From: an uncultured Clostridia bacterium
GTDB taxonomy: Bacteria > Bacillota > Clostridia > TANB77 > CAG-465
Assembly: GCA_947628005.1 (NCBI GenBank)
Contig: CANQYI010000003.1
Location: forward strand, 134,077-198,076
Direction: 5' to 3'
Length of the DNA: 64,000 bases
Below the pieces are notes generated by a model that saw nothing but the letters and a program-made list of their open reading frames with translations, made no database searches and was not told the origin of the DNA. Positions 8,869 to 35,106 of the stretch are shown here, piece after piece; the first letter of the stretch is position 1; each line of letters begins with the position of its first letter. The position numbers and the translations under genes were made by a program.

Positions 8869-9147
8869 ATGAATATTTATATTTACTTTATAATTTATAT
8901 AATAGCAATAAATTTATTAAGTTTTTACGTAATGTATTCTGACAAATCAAAAGCAATTAGAAATGCAAGAAGAATACCAGAAAAAAGTATATTTTTATTA
9001 TGCTTTTTAGGTGGCTCATTAGGAACTTATCTGGGAATGTATAAATTTAGACATAAGACTAAGCATATAAATTTTGTAGTTATGGTTCCTGTCATATTTT
9101 TATTAAACATTATAATGGCATATTTTATATTAAAATATATAAAATAA
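8869..9147 (+). CDS. DUF1294-family small membrane protein
   Basis: 92 aa with two TM segments and conserved ARRIPE...GGSLGTYLGMYKFRHKTKH block typical of DUF1294. Preceded by an extended -10 TGATATAAT. Confidence 0.6.
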   Translation: MNIYIYFIIYIIAINLLSFYVMYSDKSKAIRNARRIPEKSIFLLCFLGGSLGTYLGMYKFRHKTKHINFVVMVPVIFLLNIIMAYFILKYIK

Positions 9148-9150
9148 TAT

Positions 9151-10875
9151 TTACATTTTTTCTGGACATTCTATTCCCAATATATCAAGGCCATTTTTTA
9201 TAACTATTCCTGTAGCATAAACTAGTATTGATCTTGCTGTTTTTAACTGTTCATCTTCTAAATTTACTACATTACATTCATTGTAAAATCTAGAAAACTT
9301 AGTTGCTACATCGATTAAGTATCTTGAAAGTATTGCAGGTTCATATTCAATTGCTGCCCTCTTTATAGTTTCTTTAAACTTTTCTAGTGACTTTATTAAT
9401 TCTATTTCTTGATTTGTATTTAAAATATTAAAATTTACATTATCTAATGAGATTTTATCTAAATTAAAGTTTAACTTTTCAAGTATTGAATTAGTTCTTA
9501 CGTATGTATACTGTATATATGGTCCTGTTTCGCCATCAAATCTTAATGTTTCATCTAAATCAAATATTACATCTTTGCTTTTACTAGATTTTAAGTAATT
9601 AAACACCAATGCGCCTATTCCCACCTGTTTTGCAACTAAATCAATATTTTCTAATTTAGAATTTTTATTTCTTAATATTTCCTGTGACTTAGAAATTGCT
9701 TCATTAATTAAGTCATTTACATATATAACATTACCTTCTCTAGTTGACATTTTTCCACTCTTTAATCTAACCATTCCATAAGATACATGTACAAGTCCTT
9801 CTTGATATTTCTTATCAACTAAATGTTTTGCTACACTAAATATCTGTTTAAAATGCAATATTTGTTCTGTAGCAGTAACATATATACATTTATCGAAATT
9901 ATAAGTCCTTGCTCTATATAATATAGCAGCTAAATCACGTGTTGCATATATTGTAGATCCATTTGATTTTAATACTATACATGGTGGCATATCATCTCCA
10001 ACATCTACAACTTTTGCTCCTTGGCTTTCAATTAATACACCCTTTTTATCTAAAATGTCTATTACTTCATCCATTTTATCGTTATAAAAAGCCTCTCCAT
10101 TATAAGAGTCAAAGTGACAATTTAAAATTTCATAAATTCTATTATATTCTTTTAATGATACATCTTTAAAGAATTCCCACATCTTTATTAATTCTTTATC
10201 GCCACTTTCTAATTTTTTAAAGTTTTCTCTAGCTAAATTCATTATATTTTCGTCTTCTTTAGCAAGTTTTGATATTCTAACATAAATGTCTGAAAGTACA
10301 CCAAGTGGGTCCTTTGATAAGTCATATTCATCACTAAAGCGCCTATAACCTTCTATTAATAATCCAAACTGTCTTCCCCAATCTCCTAAATGATTTATTG
10401 AAATTACATTGTAGCCTAATTTTTTATATAAATTATATATTGCTTTTCCTAATACAGTATTTCTAAAATGTCCTAAATGAAACGGCTTTGCAATATTAGG
10501 AGAAGAATACTCCACAATTATATTAAGTTTTGAATTTTTGCTTTCATCTTGCATACCATAGTTATCTTTATTAATTACAATATCATTTAATGTACTAGAA
10601 ATAATATCTTCATTGTTAATGTAAAAATTTAAAAATCCATTAACAGGCTCTACTTTTTTTATATTTGAATCTAGTTTGATACTATTTTTTATATCATTTG
10701 CAATATTAATAGGAGAATTTCTTAAAATTTTTGCAAGACTAAAACATGGAAAAGAAAAGTCTCCATTTTTTTTATCTTTAGGGACTTCTATTTTATCGTA
10801 AATTTCATCATAATCCACATTTATATTTAAAGAATTTATTATACTGTTTGCTATTACCTCTTTAATATTTTTCAT
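9151..10875 (-). CDS. argS: arginine--tRNA ligase
   Basis: Class-I HIGH motif (PNIAKPFHLGHFRN), MSTR (KMSKS-equivalent) motif and an ArgRS-type anticodon-binding C-terminus. 574 aa. Confidence 0.95.
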   Translation of the reverse strand: MKNIKEVIANSIINSLNINVDYDEIYDKIEVPKDKKNGDFSFPCFSLAKILRNSPINIANDIKNSIKLDSNIKKVEPVNGFLNFYINNEDIISSTLNDIVINKDNYGMQDESKNSKLNIIVEYSSPNIAKPFHLGHFRNTVLGKAIYNLYKKLGYNVISINHLGDWGRQFGLLIEGYRRFSDEYDLSKDPLGVLSDIYVRISKLAKEDENIMNLARENFKKLESGDKELIKMWEFFKDVSLKEYNRIYEILNCHFDSYNGEAFYNDKMDEVIDILDKKGVLIESQGAKVVDVGDDMPPCIVLKSNGSTIYATRDLAAILYRARTYNFDKCIYVTATEQILHFKQIFSVAKHLVDKKYQEGLVHVSYGMVRLKSGKMSTREGNVIYVNDLINEAISKSQEILRNKNSKLENIDLVAKQVGIGALVFNYLKSSKSKDVIFDLDETLRFDGETGPYIQYTYVRTNSILEKLNFNLDKISLDNVNFNILNTNQEIELIKSLEKFKETIKRAAIEYEPAILSRYLIDVATKFSRFYNECNVVNLEDEQLKTARSILVYATGIVIKNGLDILGIECPEKM

Positions 10876-14295: not shown

Positions 14296-15615
14296 TTATT
14301 CCTCCTCTACTTTTGCAAATAGATCATATTCATTATAATCTATTATCTTAACCTTACAAAATTCACCAACTATAACTTTTTTTGAACTTGTTTCATCTAT
14401 CTTTACATATACTCTACCATCGACGTCGGGTGCATGCATATATGACCTACAAATAAAATATTTTTCATCTTCTGTCACACCTTCAACAATGACTTCATAT
14501 TTTTTCCCTACTTTTTGCTTATTACTTTCTTCAGATATATGTTTTTGAATATCAAATATCTCTTTTAATCTTCTGGTTTTTATATATTCTGGAATTTGAT
14601 TTTTCATACTATAAGCTTTCGTATCTTCTTCCTTTGAAAATGTAAATGCACCTAATCTGTCAAATTTTAATTCATAGATTCCACTTTTTAATTCCTCGAA
14701 ATCTTTTTCTGTCTCCCCAGGGAAGCCAGTAATTAAAGTTGTTCTAAGTATTGCTCCTGGTACATTTTTTCTAATCTTTTCTATATTATCATATATTAAT
14801 TTTTTGTTATCGTATCTATTCATATTTTTGAGCATTTTATCATTTAAATGTTGTATAGGAATATCAAAATATTTGCAAAGTTTATCATTATTTTTAAATT
14901 CATCAATCAGTTCATCTGTTATTTCATATAGGTACATGTATAGTACTCTAATCCACTTTACTCCTTCTATTTTGCTAATTTTGTTTAGTAATTCTGCAAG
15001 TTTTAACTTTCCATATATATCTAAACCATACTTTGTTGTATCTTGAGAAATTATACAAAATTCTTTTATTCCTTGACTTGCTAAGTTTTCTACTTCGTCT
15101 AAGATATCTTCCATTTTTCTACTTTTGAAACTTCCACGTATTAAAGGAATTGCACAATAACTGCACTTATTATCACAACCATCTGAAATTCTTATATAAG
15201 CTAAAGGAAAATTTGAAGATATAATACGATCATTAAAACTTAATTTATGATTGAAAAAATTCTTATTGAAAAAATTAGATAGAATAACATCTATTTGTGG
15301 GTATTCATCCACTCCTATTACTAAATCTACTTCTGGCATATACTTTAAAATATCTTGTTTATATCTTTTTGCAAGACAACCAGTTACAATTAAATATTTA
15401 CAATTTCCTGTCTGTTTAAAATCAGCCATATCAAGAATAGTATTTATAGCCTCTTGCTTAGCAGATTCTATAAATCCACAAGTATTTACTAGTATTATGT
15501 CTGCTATTTGTAGATCAGTTGTAATATTAAAATTTCTCTTTTTAAAAAATCCCAGTAGCATTTCGCTATCTACTTGATTTTTAGTACATCCTAAAGTAAT
15601 TACTGCTATATTCAT
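14296..15615 (-). CDS. rimO: radical-SAM methylthiotransferase, RimO/MiaB family (RimO-like)
   Basis: MTTase N-domain (NIAVITLGCTKNQVDSE), radical-SAM CSYCAIP motif and C-terminal TRAM domain. Start moved to the ATG at 15615 (MNIAV...). Confidence 0.8.
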   Translation of the reverse strand: MNIAVITLGCTKNQVDSEMLLGFFKKRNFNITTDLQIADIILVNTCGFIESAKQEAINTILDMADFKQTGNCKYLIVTGCLAKRYKQDILKYMPEVDLVIGVDEYPQIDVILSNFFNKNFFNHKLSFNDRIISSNFPLAYIRISDGCDNKCSYCAIPLIRGSFKSRKMEDILDEVENLASQGIKEFCIISQDTTKYGLDIYGKLKLAELLNKISKIEGVKWIRVLYMYLYEITDELIDEFKNNDKLCKYFDIPIQHLNDKMLKNMNRYDNKKLIYDNIEKIRKNVPGAILRTTLITGFPGETEKDFEELKSGIYELKFDRLGAFTFSKEEDTKAYSMKNQIPEYIKTRRLKEIFDIQKHISEESNKQKVGKKYEVIVEGVTEDEKYFICRSYMHAPDVDGRVYVKIDETSSKKVIVGEFCKVKIIDYNEYDLFAKVEEE

Positions 15616-15768
15616 ATATAGTCTCCTTTCAGTAAAAAAATTATACCACAAAATGTGAAAAAAAGATAGTATTTGATTAAAGTTCGACAAAATTGTATAT
15701 AAATCTATAAATTATGTCGAAATTTGTCCTAATTATGTAAAACTTTTTTCTAAATTTTAAATATAATA

Positions 15769-15797
15769 TTGACTTTTTCTTTTTTCTATGTTATAAT
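15769..15797 (+). promoter_or_regulatory. sigma-A-type promoter (TTGACT-17-TATAAT) driving the GC-rich element
   Basis: Perfect-spacing consensus hexamers read directly from the sequence. Predicted TSS about 15804-15806. Confidence 0.55.
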
Positions 15798-15803
15798 ATT
15801 GCT

Positions 15804-16303
15804 TAGTCTATTTTTTTTAATATGTAAAAAAATTTTTTTAACAGGAGGAAATGAAATTGGTTTATCTTACCGAAATCGGGTTCTCTGCTGGGGCCCTGCA
15901 ATTTATCAATGCCCCAGGTCAATTCGTTGACCTGAAGCCAGCAAAAAATAACAACAATGTTGACCTGCTACTTGCCGTCATCCATGACGAAAGTGGCGAG
16001 GTTGCAAACATGGAGCTGATCGCAACGTCTGATGATCAGCTCGAGGGAATTTGTCTTCTAGACAAACAGGCTCTAAGTAGAGCCTTTGAAAGGGCGAATC
16101 GAAAAGATTCACATTCACTAATAGAAGATATGCGAAACGGCAGTCTTCTGAAGTGGACAGAGTTTCTAGCGAGTATTTGGATGAATGTACGTCCGATAGC
16201 GCTAGAGAAAGTCTCTTAATCGCAACTACTGTTGCGGTTTGAGATTTATATAAATGTAGCCGGTAGACCTTTGGGGTCTGCCGGCTGCCTTTTATTTAAT
16301 TTT
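15804..16303 (+). ncRNA. candidate structured RNA, or a small foreign-codon ORF (122 aa, 15851..16219). GC-anomalous transcription unit
   Basis: About 47% GC body in a roughly 28% GC genome. Several perfect hairpins: ggtcaaTTCGttgacc, gagctgatc-N12-gatcagctc, aggctctAAGTagagcct, cgcaacTACTgttgcg. Ends in the gccggtagacc/ggtctgccggc hairpin plus T-run. AGGAGG sits only 2 nt before the ATG, or 8 nt before an in-frame TTG. Codons rare for clostridia (CTG, GCC, GGG, CCG). No match to tmRNA, RNase P or SRP conserved blocks. Confidence 0.35.
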
Positions 16304-16888
16304 ATCAAACCTTGATAAAATTGGTTGTATTTGCTTTTGATTCATAGCATCACTTATTGTATCAACTACATATGTATAATCTAAAACTAATGATTTTGGC
16401 TTTGCTATTGAATCATCTTGTCTAAAAGGTACAAAATAAAAATTTTTAGTATTTAATAAAAGTCCTATATTTTTCAAGCTGTTACCAAGTCCATCATTTG
16501 TAGAAACTCCAAGTACTACTGGTTTATTATTTCTAATGTGACTTTTTATTGCCATAGTAACAGTTGTATCTGTTATACCATTTGCAAGTTTTGCTAAAGT
16601 ATTTCCTGTACAAGGGCATACAACAATAATATCAACTATATTTTTTGGTCCAATTGGTTCAGCTTTTACAATTGTATCAATTATTTGATTTTTTGTAGTA
16701 TCTTCTAGCATTTTTACAAAGTCTGAGGCCTTATAAAACCTAGTATCAAAATTTTTAGAAGATTCTGATATTATAGGTAAAACATCTGCCCCCTCTTGTT
16801 TTATATTCTCTATTAAATTTTTTACTTCCTTAAAATTACAAAATGAGCCGGTTATACCTAGTCCTACTTTTAATCCTTCTAATTTCAT
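16292..16888 (-). CDS. HFCD-family flavoprotein, dipicolinate synthase subunit B (DpaB/SpoVFB)-like
   Basis: MKLEGLKVGLGITGSFCNF...CPCTGNTLAKLANGITDT...VVLGVSTNDGLGN... is collinear with B. subtilis SpoVFB. No dpaA partner gene is adjacent. Confidence 0.7.
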   Translation of the reverse strand: MKLEGLKVGLGITGSFCNFKEVKNLIENIKQEGADVLPIISESSKNFDTRFYKASDFVKMLEDTTKNQIIDTIVKAEPIGPKNIVDIIVVCPCTGNTLAKLANGITDTTVTMAIKSHIRNNKPVVLGVSTNDGLGNSLKNIGLLLNTKNFYFVPFRQDDSIAKPKSLVLDYTYVVDTISDAMNQKQIQPILSRFDKIK

Positions 16889-17633: not shown

Positions 17634-18047
17634 TTATTCTATTTTTTGCACACCACTTTCTTCAAGCCATTTAGCCTCTTCTTCAGAAAAATCAATTTCT
17701 CTATATACTAACTGTCCATCTTTTAGACCAAGTCTATCAACATATTCCTCAGTGATAGAAGGTATATATTCTTCTATTTCATATTTATCATCATCAGTTT
17801 TTCTTCCGATAGTTGCATCCATATCAGTAAAATTATATTTCAAATTTTCTGTCTTCTTATTAGTATATGTGATAGAAATTTCATTAATAAAATTGTCAAT
17901 ATCATTTTTAAATCTTACTTCTTTTGCTGAATCTATTGGATTGTTTCTTTCTATGTTTAATAATACAACTGATAGCAATATTACACTTACAATTATAGTA
18001 ATTATTAAAACTATCATACTTATTCCGCTTTTTTTCTTTGAAAGCAT
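17634..18047 (-). CDS. hypothetical membrane-anchored protein (single N-terminal TM, acidic C-terminal domain)
   Basis: ATG at 18047 preceded by GAGGTG. One TM (MIVLIITIIVSVILLSVVLL) then a soluble domain. Lies upstream of lexA on the same strand. Confidence 0.5.
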   Translation of the reverse strand: MLSKKKSGISMIVLIITIIVSVILLSVVLLNIERNNPIDSAKEVRFKNDIDNFINEISITYTNKKTENLKYNFTDMDATIGRKTDDDKYEIEEYIPSITEEYVDRLGLKDGQLVYREIDFSEEEAKWLEESGVQKIE

Positions 18048-18996: not shown

Positions 18997-19176
18997 TTAA
19001 TATTGCATATATTGGTTATACCCACTCATACAATAAGAATTGTTGATATTTTGTTCACAGCAATTTTGATTTTGATAATTTGTATTATAACAACATGGAT
19101 TTACAGATTGCTGACATATACATTTGCAACAACAAATATAATTTGATGAATTTTGATTACAACAACAATTTTGCAT
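18997..19176 (-). CDS. small cysteine/asparagine/glutamine-rich protein (59 aa). Possible spore-coat or exosporium-type protein or metal-binding peptide
   Basis: Not in the ORF track (under 60 aa). ATG 5 nt after GGAGGA. Sequence MQNCCCNQNSSNYICCCKCICQQSVNPCCYNTNYQNQNCCEQNINNSYCMSGYNQYMQY with 14 Cys. Upstream AC-17-CATATAGTA resembles a sigma-K promoter. Confidence 0.45.
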   Translation of the reverse strand: MQNCCCNQNSSNYICCCKCICQQSVNPCCYNTNYQNQNCCEQNINNSYCMSGYNQYMQY

Positions 19177-23444: not shown

Positions 23445-24926
23445 CTATAATATAATACAAATCAATCCTCCACTACCCTCGTTTATTATTCTTTGTAGTG
23501 TTTCTTGTAATTTCATTTGTGCTTCATCCGGCATTCTATACAATTTATTGTGTAAACCTTCATTTACCAGTTCATGTAAAGATTTGCCAAATATATTAGA
23601 TTGCCAAATTTGTTTTGGATCATTTTCAAATTCTGACAATAGATATTTTACTAAATCTTCAGATTGTTTTTCACTTCCAACTATAGGTGAAACCTCTGTT
23701 TCTATATCTGCTCTAATCATGTGTATAGATGGTGCTGAAGCTTTTAGTTTTACGCCATATTTATTACCCTGCTTTACAATTTCTGGTTCTTCTAAAGTTA
23801 ATTCATCAATTTGTGGAGTAACAATTCCATAACCTTTTACTCTAACTTCTTCTAAAGCCATTGATATCTTATCATATTCCATTTTAGTAGTTGCAAATTC
23901 TTTCATTAATTTAAATATATCGCCATCTGAATTTACATTGAAGTTAGATACTTCACTTAATACTTTATAGAATAATTTTGGATTAACATTCATTTGAATT
24001 TTTATGCTTCCGTCTTCCATTTTAGCTTCTTCAACATTTATTGATTCAAATAAATCATTATCTTGTTTTAATTTTTCTATTAATTCATTTATTTGTCTGA
24101 TTGAATAATCATTATTAAAATTATTTTTTACTATATTTATAATATCTTGTTTTAGCCAGTTATCAAAATCTAAGATGTTAAACCAATCTGGAAGTCTAAA
24201 ACCTATTTCTGTAATTGGGAACTCATCTAATACCCTTTCAAAAATTTCGCCTAGATCCTTTTCTGATAAATTTGCAATATCTACTGGTATTACTTGAACT
24301 GAATGTTTTTTAGACAGTTCTAAAGCAAGGTCTCTTGTTTCTTGATTTTCTGGATGCACTGAATTTAATAATACAACAAAAGGTTTATTTATTTCTTTTA
24401 ATTCATGTATTACCTTATTTTCTGCTTCAACATAGTCTCTTCTATCTATATCTGTAATAGTACCGTCAGTTGTAACTACAAGTCCTATTGTGGAATGATC
24501 TGTTATTACTTTCTTTGTTCCTATTTCAGCGGCCTTTGCAAATGGTATTGCATCATCGTACCAAGGTGTCTTTACCATTCTTGGCATATCGTCTTCCATG
24601 TGTCCTACTGCTGAATCTACCAAATAGCCAACACAGTCAACAAGTCTAGTTTTCATGTGCACGTTATTTGCAAGTGTAATATCAACTGATTCATTTGGAA
24701 CAAATTTAGGCTCTGTAGTCATTATAGTTTTTCCTGACGCACTCTGTGGAAGTTCATCTTTTGCTCTATCTTGTCTATACTCATTTTCTATATTTGGAAT
24801 GACAAACATTTCCATAAAGTTTTTAATAAATGTAGATTTACCCGTTCTAACTGGTCCAACCACACCGATATATATATCTCCATTAGTTCTTGATGATATA
24901 TCTTTATAAATACTATCTCTTTTCAT
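23445..24926 (-). CDS. spoIVA: stage IV sporulation protein A
   Basis: N-terminus DIYIGVVGPVRTGKSTFIKNFME...DELPQSASGKTIMTTEPKFVP is near-identical in pattern to B. subtilis SpoIVA. 493 aa. Confidence 0.92.
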   Translation of the reverse strand: MKRDSIYKDISSRTNGDIYIGVVGPVRTGKSTFIKNFMEMFVIPNIENEYRQDRAKDELPQSASGKTIMTTEPKFVPNESVDITLANNVHMKTRLVDCVGYLVDSAVGHMEDDMPRMVKTPWYDDAIPFAKAAEIGTKKVITDHSTIGLVVTTDGTITDIDRRDYVEAENKVIHELKEINKPFVVLLNSVHPENQETRDLALELSKKHSVQVIPVDIANLSEKDLGEIFERVLDEFPITEIGFRLPDWFNILDFDNWLKQDIINIVKNNFNNDYSIRQINELIEKLKQDNDLFESINVEEAKMEDGSIKIQMNVNPKLFYKVLSEVSNFNVNSDGDIFKLMKEFATTKMEYDKISMALEEVRVKGYGIVTPQIDELTLEEPEIVKQGNKYGVKLKASAPSIHMIRADIETEVSPIVGSEKQSEDLVKYLLSEFENDPKQIWQSNIFGKSLHELVNEGLHNKLYRMPDEAQMKLQETLQRIINEGSGGLICIIL

Positions 24927-34159: not shown

Positions 34160-34359
34160 GTGGCTTAAAATACGTTGAAAAAATCAACAATATATGCTAT
34201 AATAATATCGTTATCTGTATCATGAACTACTATGATTATAGTAACTATTTAGTAATGATTGAAACTATATTTTTTGTTTCTATTAAAACTAAACAAAACC
34301 TTAATACAAGCATACTGCCATAGTGCTTGTAAAAAAATAATTTTATGGAGGTGTTAATT

Positions 34360-35106
34360 ATGGCAGAAAGAGTATCAAAAGAAGTTCCAATTGCGGAACG
34401 GTTAATCGAGTTTGGAAAGGATGATTTCAATGAGAATTTTTCACTTTCTGAAATTTCTGAAAGTTTAATTACTCAGAAAATACTTGAAGAGTTTGCAGAA
34501 AATGCTTTAGTTCTTATTGACGGTACAGACATTCTGCAGTACGCAAATGAATATCCTATTGTTGTATATCAGTGCAACGAAAATATTTGCTATGAAAGTA
34601 TAACACCTGAACCTCGTCTCAACAGCTTTGTACTGAGCATTGCGGTATCAACAGGTGTGAGTGGCAAAAGATTTTCGGTTAGCTCTGGAAAAATGAAAGC
34701 TGACATTAACGATTTCGATACCATTGCTTACTATGAAGATTCAGTTGGCATCAAGCATAAGATTATTCAGTATGACATTTGCAAGTTCTTGCTGAAAAAG
34801 CCTAAGCTTGTTGTCTCTGAGGAAGGTGTTCTTGTTTTCTTTACTGAAGACCAAATTTTAGCAACAATTGACTGTCAGCAGTATGTATGGGTTCGTTGGG
34901 ACGACATCATTAAAAATTGCACAAGCATTGAAAACATTACCGCATATCACGAGTATTGTGAAGTAACTCTTGTTGAGGGCGAAGATGTTTATGATAATTT
35001 AGGTAAAATTTTTAAAAAAGCCCCCAGACACGTTTTAAATCTGAACTTCAATTTGAAGGTAGCAGACCATAACATGATAAATCCTGAATTTACGAAAAAA
35101 TCGTAA
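34360..35106 (+). CDS. hypothetical protein (249 aa), GC-atypical (about 37-38% GC) cargo gene
   Basis: ATG 6 nt after GGAGGTG. Own TTGAAA-17-TATAAT promoter at 34175-34203 with a roughly 150-nt leader. No motif recognised. Codon usage differs from the flanks. Confidence 0.5.
   Translation: MAERVSKEVPIAERLIEFGKDDFNENFSLSEISESLITQKILEEFAENALVLIDGTDILQYANEYPIVVYQCNENICYESITPEPRLNSFVLSIAVSTGVSGKRFSVSSGKMKADINDFDTIAYYEDSVGIKHKIIQYDICKFLLKKPKLVVSEEGVLVFFTEDQILATIDCQQYVWVRWDDIIKNCTSIENITAYHEYCEVTLVEGEDVYDNLGKIFKKAPRHVLNLNFNLKVADHNMINPEFTKKS

Follow-up and report, generated by a model that had tools for sequence, protein, structure and literature searches.

We analysed a stretch of 64,000 nucleotides (nt) of contig CANQYI010000003.1 (hereafter the window), from the assembly of an uncultured Clostridia bacterium, and in it a short transcription unit at 15769-16303, between rimO and a dpaB-like flavoprotein gene. 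A preliminary description of this unit had set a hairpin-dense body of about 47% GC against a genome of about 28%, and had leaned towards a novel structured RNA over a horizontally acquired small protein. The compositional contrast is real. The body (15851-16290, 440 nt) has 45.2% GC and the coding sequence (CDS) defined below (15857-16219) 44.9%, compared with 26.6% for the whole window, 18.6% for the 5' leader of the unit and 19% for the intergenic region upstream. Averaged over 200 nt, GC climbs from 0.19-0.25 to 0.39-0.455 and then returns to 0.25, and apart from the tRNA cluster at 30.7-31.3 kb no other 300-nt island of the window attains 0.40 GC. The third-highest GC rise of the window (about 0.40 over 300 nt) falls on a plus-strand open reading frame (ORF) at 34345-35106, of 253 amino acids (aa) and with no Pfam match.

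The unit is read from the plus strand and is framed by expression signals that the preliminary description had recognised correctly. A sigma-70/sigmaA-type promoter lies at 15769-15797, with a -35 box TTGACT (15769-15774), a 17-nt spacer ending in TG and a -10 box TATAAT (15792-15797); in a consensus scan it matches 11 of 12 positions, with the TG extension present. To compare alleles we aligned the DNA of the whole unit from 12 sources, the window and eleven metagenome contigs, and the promoter is unchanged across all of them. The same TTGACT-17-TGTTATAAT promoter is found in a sister species (locus L058), and an equivalent in another (locus L061). The AT-rich 5' leader (15798-15856, about 52 nt if transcription starts near 15804) carries a Shine-Dalgarno (SD) sequence, AGGAGG, at 15843-15848. 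This leader is hypervariable among the alleles, with three distinct haplotypes and indels of 1, 2 and 3 nt; a GGAGG box is kept 7-9 nt 5' of the aligned start in L058 and L061, and the leader and start region are unstructured in every lineage (z -0.1 to +1.6). At the other end, an intrinsic terminator (16256-16298) consists of a 15-pair stem at 16256-16288, nine of the pairs being G-C, followed by a T-run. It is near-invariant in the 12 alleles, where a single G>A (L009/L010) converts a G-U pair to A-U. The convergent dpaB-like gene has its stop codon (16292-16294, minus strand) within this T-run, so that the terminator is probably bidirectional and serves both genes; the 3' end of the unit as first drawn (16292-16303) overlaps the last codons of that neighbour.

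The unit contains an ORF that had been given as 122 aa long (15851-16219), starting at ATG 15851. The ORF is real, and its start is not the one proposed. This ATG lies only 2 nt from the SD sequence, and in other alleles it is either missing or not in frame. The in-frame TTG at 15857, which the preliminary description had mentioned, lies 8 nt after AGGAGG and aligns with the ATG of the L004 and L007 alleles. Because these two alleles have no in-frame upstream ATG, the functional start is almost certainly TTG 15857, which gives a plus-strand CDS of 15857-16219 (stop TAA at 16217-16219) for an orphan protein of 120 aa. Every indel in the CDS among alleles (3, 3+3 and 6 nt) is a multiple of 3, and the reading frame is open in all homologs, with lengths of 114-120 aa. 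Variable CDS sites number 13, 4 and 17 at codon positions 1, 2 and 3, respectively. Between the window and L007, 19 changes are synonymous and 12 non-synonymous, and the ratio of non-synonymous to synonymous divergence (dN/dS) is 0.16 (range of estimates 0.14-0.17). Among contigs L007-L011, the eight variable CDS positions are synonymous without exception (8/8), every one of these alleles encoding the identical protein P0003. Among three species, the protein keeps 35-42% identity at fully saturated synonymous sites (proportion of synonymous differences, pS, 0.78-0.93); conservation is therefore at the amino-acid level only. Judged by this pattern of change, the unit is a protein-coding gene under purifying selection on its protein, which bears out the small-protein alternative of the preliminary description.

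The relatives on which these comparisons draw are few. Among 5.8 billion clustered proteins we found three close relatives of the 122-aa ORF, on eleven metagenome contigs that all carry rho, rimO, the ORF, the flavoprotein gene and lexA in this order. An exhaustive HMMER search of 1.84 billion representatives gave P0004 (E 2e-21) and P0005 (E 3.5e-15), and a metagenome scan added the L061 locus; the family totals five clusters among the 5.8 billion proteins. P0004 (L058) and the P0005-type gene (L061) fill the same rho-rimO-ORF-flavoprotein-lexA slot in two other species. A further candidate homolog, P0006 (473 aa, 5 repeats), was rejected as a low-complexity Ala/Glu/Pro repeat protein. No ORF homolog was found in a scan of 185,579 GTDB species genomes, none by tblastn in phages (INPHARED) or plasmids (PLSDB), none in IMG/VR scans with this ORF (ORF1) or with the second ORF described next, and none outside the clade when JGI metagenomes were included. 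The nearest GTDB representatives are gut metagenome-assembled genomes (MAGs) whose RimO is 71% identical. Two GTDB gut MAGs, CANAIR01 and CAKOYA01, provided the outgroup loci L012 and L013, where there is neither the ORF nor a GC island; the cassette was thus gained in a narrow clade. The family is a taxonomically restricted, very fast-evolving and previously undescribed orphan of a narrow clade of uncultured gut Clostridia.

In both sister species a second orphan, ORF2, stands directly behind ORF1 (L058 5455-5772, L061 3488-3811; 105-107 aa, GC 0.37), and the window species is without it. The L058 and L061 copies of ORF2 are homologs (25% identity, E 3e-7). Paralogy between ORF1 and ORF2 was considered and is not established: they have in common only a C-terminal 'G-x-L..PE..(V/A)ASW' (hhalign E 0.044-0.052).

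How much of the sequence is nevertheless shaped as an RNA? The hairpins listed in the preliminary description are all present on the plus strand. The UUCG-loop hairpin caggtcaaTTCGttgacctg (15915-15934) is a perfect stem of 8 bp, longer than claimed; the stem gagctgatc/gatcagctc (16013-16042) has 9 perfect bp and aggctctAAGTagagcct (16068-16085) 7. Two 7-bp hairpins had been missed, the perfect tttgtctTCTagacaaa at 16050-16066, inside the CDS like the previous three, and one with arms at 15888-15894 and 15911-15917. A 3'-untranslated region (3'-UTR) hairpin follows just past the stop (16218-16239), with a 6-bp core cgcaacTACTgttgcg at 16221-16236. Under one counting rule, applied to 1000 synonymous-codon and 1000 mononucleotide shuffles, the window allele scores 8 perfect-hairpin hits compared with about 0.85 and 0.9, respectively, and none of 1000 shuffles reaches 8. 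The transcript 15804-16300 has a minimum free energy (MFE) of -189.9 kcal/mol, against -125.7 +/- 5.5 for dinucleotide shuffles (z = -11.8). Per nucleotide, the folding energy of the CDS is -0.36 kcal/mol, that of host genes -0.13 to -0.18. With synonymous-codon shuffles, which keep protein and codon usage fixed, z is -5.5 for the window, -4.75 for L004, -3.7 for L007, -3.5 for L058 and +0.35 for L061. Each of the four alleles of the window species has the excess of perfect hairpins (p <= 0.006), which L058 and L061 lack.

These figures, together with the native-looking promoter and terminator around a GC-rich body in an AT-rich genome and a sense strand that folds better than the antisense, are what would be expected of a non-coding structured RNA gene, in which the hairpins are functional and the ORF is a by-product of GC-rich sequence. 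However, the frame is kept through four independent indels and in homologs of only 35-42% identity, at a dN/dS of 0.16; the SD sequence, the start codon and the open start region are conserved; and the L061 gene shows no excess structure at all. The unit also matches no known RNA family, as had been remarked before. A search of Rfam 15 at E <= 10 returned nothing near a gathering score, the best scores (21.2 bits for a gathering score of 100, 20.3 bits for one of 34) falling on the minus strand or the terminator at chance level, and ARAGORN detected no tRNA or tmRNA at the locus. The fate of the pairs, described below, points the same way. We regard a non-coding RNA gene, the preference of the preliminary description, as very improbable: under the refuting condition which that description had itself set, it is refuted by conservation at the amino-acid level with a coding pattern, and by hairpins that are not conserved.

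What becomes of the hairpins when the sequence changes? In L007, the UUCG hairpin has lost an inner pair by a G>A (Asp>Asn) and gained an outer one by an A>G (Lys>Glu), and at the homologous position of L058 and L061 it is absent. The 9-bp hairpin has, in L007, two pairs mismatched and two turned into G-U through four synonymous changes; in L004 its 3' arm is partly deleted, and both alleles form an alternative 7-bp stem, GTTGCAA/TTGCAAC, in its place. The hairpin at 16068-16085 loses its terminal pair in L007 by a synonymous G>A. In the post-stop hairpin of L004, the 5' arm reads cgTGac, both changes pair only as G-U and the loop bases vary; such G-U pairing is possible in the sense RNA but not in the antisense strand. 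Altogether, the 31 substitutions of L007 fall 17 in paired and 14 in unpaired columns, where 63% of the columns are paired; 11 pairs are broken, 6 kept as wobble and none changed in a compensatory manner. The compensatory changes that the preliminary description had proposed to look for do not occur in the CDS helices within the species. RNAalifold on the 12 alleles attributes to covariation -2.4 of -147.7 kcal/mol, and its consensus loses the UUCG hairpin and the 9-bp hairpin. Between species, in a codon-aware alignment, the 114 predicted pairs of the window are formable in 48 of 108 cases (L058) and 46 of 106 (L061), compared with 30-47 in controls where the 3' partner was slid by 1-3 columns, although with three diverged lineages only the covariation tests are weakly powered.

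Counting how well each allele fits its own MFE structure is circular; these reciprocal counts were dropped and a matched-mutation simulation was used in their place. The real L007 allele folds at -107 kcal/mol, and the window allele given matched random substitutions at -104.9 +/- 5.4 (z -0.4), while the reverse path, from L007 to the window, would need structure-building changes (z -3.5). Because of this result, and because the differences from the window to L007 comprise 20 GC>AT against 7 AT>GC, the simplest history is that of a hyper-structured state decaying without constraint. We infer that the hairpin density is a feature of the window species, under no detectable constraint and decaying in the L007 allele. 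As far as these alignments can tell, the hairpins are not a conserved RNA device. Their density could result either from lineage-specific selection for a compact mRNA or from a mutational process such as quasi-palindrome template switching, and both causes are compatible with the clustered differences, by which one stem arm comes to match the other perfectly.

A further possibility is a dual-function RNA, one that encodes the protein and, in the window species at least, has a second, RNA-level activity in its hairpin-dense body. Such an RNA could possibly be very stable, serve as a sponge for a protein or RNase, throttle translation in a helicase- or temperature-dependent manner, or act as a barrier to read-through between the lexA/flavoprotein and the rimO/rho genes. 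In its favour, excess structure is seen even when neither protein nor codon usage is allowed to change (z -5.5 to -7.4), and the four alleles of the species all exceed shuffles in perfect hairpins, including alternative stems particular to an allele. The sense strand is favoured, its fold containing 13 G-U pairs, and the 3'-UTR hairpin is kept through G-U pairing in L004. Both ORF1 and ORF2 of L058 are in structure excess as well, and the alleles are invariant in the last third of the CDS and nearly so in the terminator. Nevertheless, no specific helix is common to different species and L061 has no excess; within the species, substitutions fall on stems as frequently as on loops, and the loss of 23 kcal/mol in L007 is exactly what random mutation predicts. 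A recombination breakpoint would account for the invariant 3' third just as well. We therefore consider a dual function improbable.

The mutational alternative holds that the hairpin density and part of the allelic divergence described below are by-products of template switching at a heavily transcribed locus, imperfect inverted repeats being repeatedly made perfect and selection filtering only protein function. The stems are perfect Watson-Crick inverted repeats, and the antisense strand shows an excess too (z -3.7). Clustered differences perfect one arm of a stem, with three changes in the 9-nt arm GAACTAATT/GAGCTGATC, and non-synonymous changes (Ile>Val, Lys>Glu) lengthen stems in particular alleles. 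The hairpin density is also species-specific and unconstrained. However, those clustered differences are all synonymous GC>AT changes along the mutation bias of the host (20 vs 7), and simple decay of an ancestral hairpin explains them equally well. Moreover, this process leaves unexplained the GC-rich composition of L061, which is free of hairpins. We hold template switching, too, to be quite unlikely as the source of the hairpins.

The composition of the CDS is unusual mostly in its silent positions. GC at the three codon positions is 0.58/0.34/0.43; the third-position value (GC3) of ORF1 is 0.43 in the window and 0.47 and 0.45 in the other two species, and that of ORF2 is 0.35-0.37. The flanking genes rho, rimO, the flavoprotein gene and lexA have GC3 of 0.11-0.23 (0.11-0.15 for the neighbours in the window) at an interspecies synonymous divergence (dS) of 0.9-2.9. 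None of the 16 Leu codons is TTA, used by the host in 57% of cases, and five are CTG (host 1%). Codons rare in the host, to which the preliminary description had drawn attention, make up 26% of the ORF, compared with a mean of 4.9% and a maximum of 13% in a comparison set of 36 host ORFs. We considered regional GC-biased gene conversion or mutational bias and disfavour both: the leader, which recombines equally, stays at 19% GC, and the spacer that separates ORF1 from ORF2 also shows a drop in GC, down to host level in L061 but in L058 no lower than about 0.35.

The locus is in addition a hot spot of allelic divergence. Between strains that are 0-0.8% different in rho, rimO, the flavoprotein gene and lexA (0.1-0.8% in rimO), the ORF differs by 8.8%, with a dS of 0.29 vs about 0.015. 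In comparison with L001-L011, the hot spot spans 15800-16120 of the window, and within the species the polymorphic sites all lie in the leader or in the CDS upstream of its last third, which is invariant. The L009 and L010 alleles are mosaics of the L007 and L001 types. By the mosaic structure of these sequences, recombination swaps diverged alleles at the locus. Genes under frequency-dependent selection commonly behave in this way, although dN/dS bears no mark of positive selection here.

Is the gene then a foreign one, either recently acquired and not yet ameliorated, or a cassette repeatedly re-imported into this slot from a GC-richer donor pool? Its composition is like that of a gene from a genome of about 44% GC, with a codon usage that is not the host's; it is absent from the two nearest outgroup genomes; and the divergence of 8.8% between strains whose flanks differ by less than 1%, together with the L009/L010 mosaics, suggests that alleles are imported by recombination. 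On the other hand, no homolog turned up outside the clade in the protein, GTDB, JGI, IMG/VR, INPHARED and PLSDB searches, and the window holds no mobility genes, repeats or extra copies associated with the unit. Furthermore, the slot, the promoter and the AT-rich leader are alike in three species whose flanking dS is saturated, which indicates an old single gain, after which the synonymous sites should have equilibrated. A foreign gene is thus unlikely in our view; in the alternative that the preliminary description had left standing, the small protein holds and its horizontal origin is poorly supported, for a gene that is syntenic in three species, has no donor homolog in the collections searched and lies behind a leader that is not GC-rich.

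We are led to the view that a persistent force on the coding sequence or the mRNA has held its GC-rich synonymous composition. Judged by elimination, this force is most likely selection on mRNA compaction or stability, or on codon choice, not a recent foreign origin. A stronger form, which we put forward only tentatively, is that gene-specific selection keeps the ORF, together with the neighbouring ORF2 of the sister species, at a GC3 of about 0.45 and about twice the host folding energy per nucleotide, in the face of strongly AT-biased mutation and for longer than synonymous sites take to saturate; in the window species, the many perfect hairpins would add an RNA-level role.

The encoded protein is acidic (pI 4.8), and reading its sequence by eye shows no obvious signal peptide or membrane segment. 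Its dN is 4-10 times that of the neighbouring genes. The N-terminal two thirds are variable, conserved motifs being 'TE-G', 'L-FIN', 'V-H-[DN]-E-x-G' and, at the C-terminus, 'G-x-L...PE-x-L-x-S-x-W-x-x-V-[KR]-P-x-A-x-E'. An AlphaFold2 model, of low confidence, has six strands (residues 4-69) followed by three helices (70-108). This distribution of conserved residues would suit a small binding protein with a conserved C-terminal helical interaction surface and a variable N-terminal domain. The CarD/CdnL regulators provide a weak lead: they are alike in small size, an N-terminal beta domain, C-terminal helices and an invariant Trp, and the CdnL structures 2lwj and 2lt3 are the best PDB profile matches. 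Membership of that family was rejected, since no Pfam match was obtained at E <= 10, hence none to PF02559, and the E-value of 0.24 covers the C-terminal part only.

Taken together, these data make it likely that the unit is a monocistronic gene for an orphan small protein, the GC content of which is held by a persistent force, and not a structured RNA. Its consensus expression signals suggest that it is probably abundant. In the scheme that we propose, the strong sigmaA-type promoter (15769-15797) would produce a transcript of about 495 nt, ribosomes would load at AGGAGG (15843-15848) in the open AT-rich leader and initiate at TTG 15857, the product would be an acidic cytoplasmic protein of 120 aa, and transcription would stop at the strong, probably bidirectional terminator common to the convergent dpaB-like gene.

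Several observations weigh against this interpretation. Coding was deduced by comparing sequences. The CDS folds to an extreme degree when protein and codon usage are controlled for (z = -5.5 to -7.4), far from the values of eleven 363-nt segments of host genes used as controls (z = -1.1 to +2.9); the sense strand folds better than the antisense (z -7.4 vs -3.7), and a structure excess recurs in ORF1 (z -3.5) and ORF2 (z -3.9) of L058. Neither the ORF, its homologs nor ORF2 has a match in Pfam, PHROG, NCBIfam or PADLOC. The best PDB profile matches, to CarD/CdnL, are not significant (E = 0.24-0.44), the AlphaFold2 model, from a six-sequence alignment, is weak (predicted local distance difference test score, pLDDT, 58; predicted template modelling score, pTM, 0.54), and fold searches were uninformative. 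The idea of a binding function draws on the conservation pattern only, and selection on composition was reached by elimination only.

The neighbourhood deserves a few remarks. The host belongs to a spore-forming lineage (SpoIVA at 23445-24926). The divergent rimO gene occupies 14296-15615 of the minus strand, with Pfam UPF0004, Radical_SAM and TRAM_2 domains on the homologous gene calls. In the ORF list it starts at TTG 15690 (464 aa); related contigs and the alignment place the start at ATG 15615 (439 aa, MNIAVITLGC...), and therefore the intergenic region is 75 nt longer than the list implies. In it lies an imperfect 16-nt inverted repeat, AAAGTTCGACAAAATT / AATTATGTCGAAATTT (15679-15694 / 15710-15725), the core of which, TTCGACAAAAT(T)ATAC, is kept in L058 and L061. 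A promoter-like site for rimO (minus strand, TCGACA-17-TACAAT) overlaps the repeat, which may be an operator or the rimO promoter. At the promoter of the unit itself we found no LexA box, the sole match with two mismatches being inside the ORF and at chance frequency. No second copy was found within the window that would suggest a miniature inverted-repeat transposable element (MITE) or a repetitive extragenic palindromic (REP)-like repeat. Finally, XhoI, XbaI, ApaI, BclI and NaeI palindromes raised the idea of a synthetic construct, which was rejected: the number of 6-bp palindromes is close to that expected, and natural alleles occur in many independent metagenomes.

On the other side, the convergent dpaB-like flavoprotein gene (16292-16888, minus strand) matches PF02441 (E 1.2e-31). 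Directly upstream of lexA, a gene at 17634-18047 (minus strand) encodes a 137-aa protein with an N-terminal membrane segment; it is kept in all related loci, has only a weak similarity to SLATT_5 (E 0.011), and apparently shares a transcription unit with lexA and the flavoprotein gene. Farther on, a 59-aa ORF at 18997-19176 (minus strand), without a Pfam match, has an extremely high content of Cys, Asn and Gln (MQNCCCNQNSSNYICCCKCICQQ...). L058 has a 56-aa gene call at the corresponding position (9018-9188). The 59-aa ORF could encode a spore-coat-like or RiPP-like (ribosomally synthesized and post-translationally modified peptide) small protein. The arrangement differs in the outgroups: in L012, rimO is divergent from lexA and the flavoprotein gene, and in L013 rimO is preceded, 112 nt upstream, by the flavoprotein gene in the same orientation, with nothing between them and without lexA. 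Because the neighbourhood is rearranged among such close relatives, this suggests that the rimO/flavoprotein/lexA region is recombinationally active beyond the ORF itself.

In conclusion, our analysis reassigns a candidate novel structured RNA to an orphan gene that codes for a protein, and settles at which codon it starts. The case also indicates that the heuristic by which a GC-rich island in an AT-rich genome is an RNA gene can mislead, even at a folding z of -11.8. With its undecayed synonymous GC, a hyper-structure limited to one species, and a hot spot of allelic divergence and mosaicism, the locus offers a compact natural test of selection on the composition and folding of an individual bacterial mRNA.

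How does this gene compare with known systems? It bears a superficial likeness to dual-function RNAs such as Staphylococcus aureus RNAIII/hld and Bacillus subtilis SR1/SR1P, which are highly structured, about 0.5 kb long, have a promoter and a terminator of their own and encode a protein. In those RNAs the ORF takes up only a little of the transcript, and the regulatory helices are conserved; here, however, the ORF fills the transcript and no helix is common to different species. In the model of Lawrence and Ochman, horizontally acquired genes are compositionally atypical and ameliorate with time. Our gene resembles them in an atypical GC content and codon usage that respect the gene boundaries, and in its absence from outgroups, but it carries no donor or mobility signature and its anomaly is undecayed at saturated host divergence. 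With taxonomically restricted ORFans it shares the narrow clade, the absence of a domain or fold, the fast dN and the slot between housekeeping genes. Bacterial orphans are usually AT-richer than the host genome, whereas this ORF is 18 points GC-richer than its host and keeps this excess across species. The closest parallel in discovery logic is with the screens of GC-rich intergenic regions (GC-IGRs) for structured RNAs in AT-rich bacteria (the GC-IGR pipeline of the Breaker laboratory; PMC6429828, PMC11109978), which follow the same reasoning and which include 'sORF' outcomes, the category that our locus fits. In contrast to those sORFs, the present ORF is of ordinary size (120 aa, not a micro-ORF), its GC excess is synonymous, and its folding z lies far beyond that of normal mRNAs.

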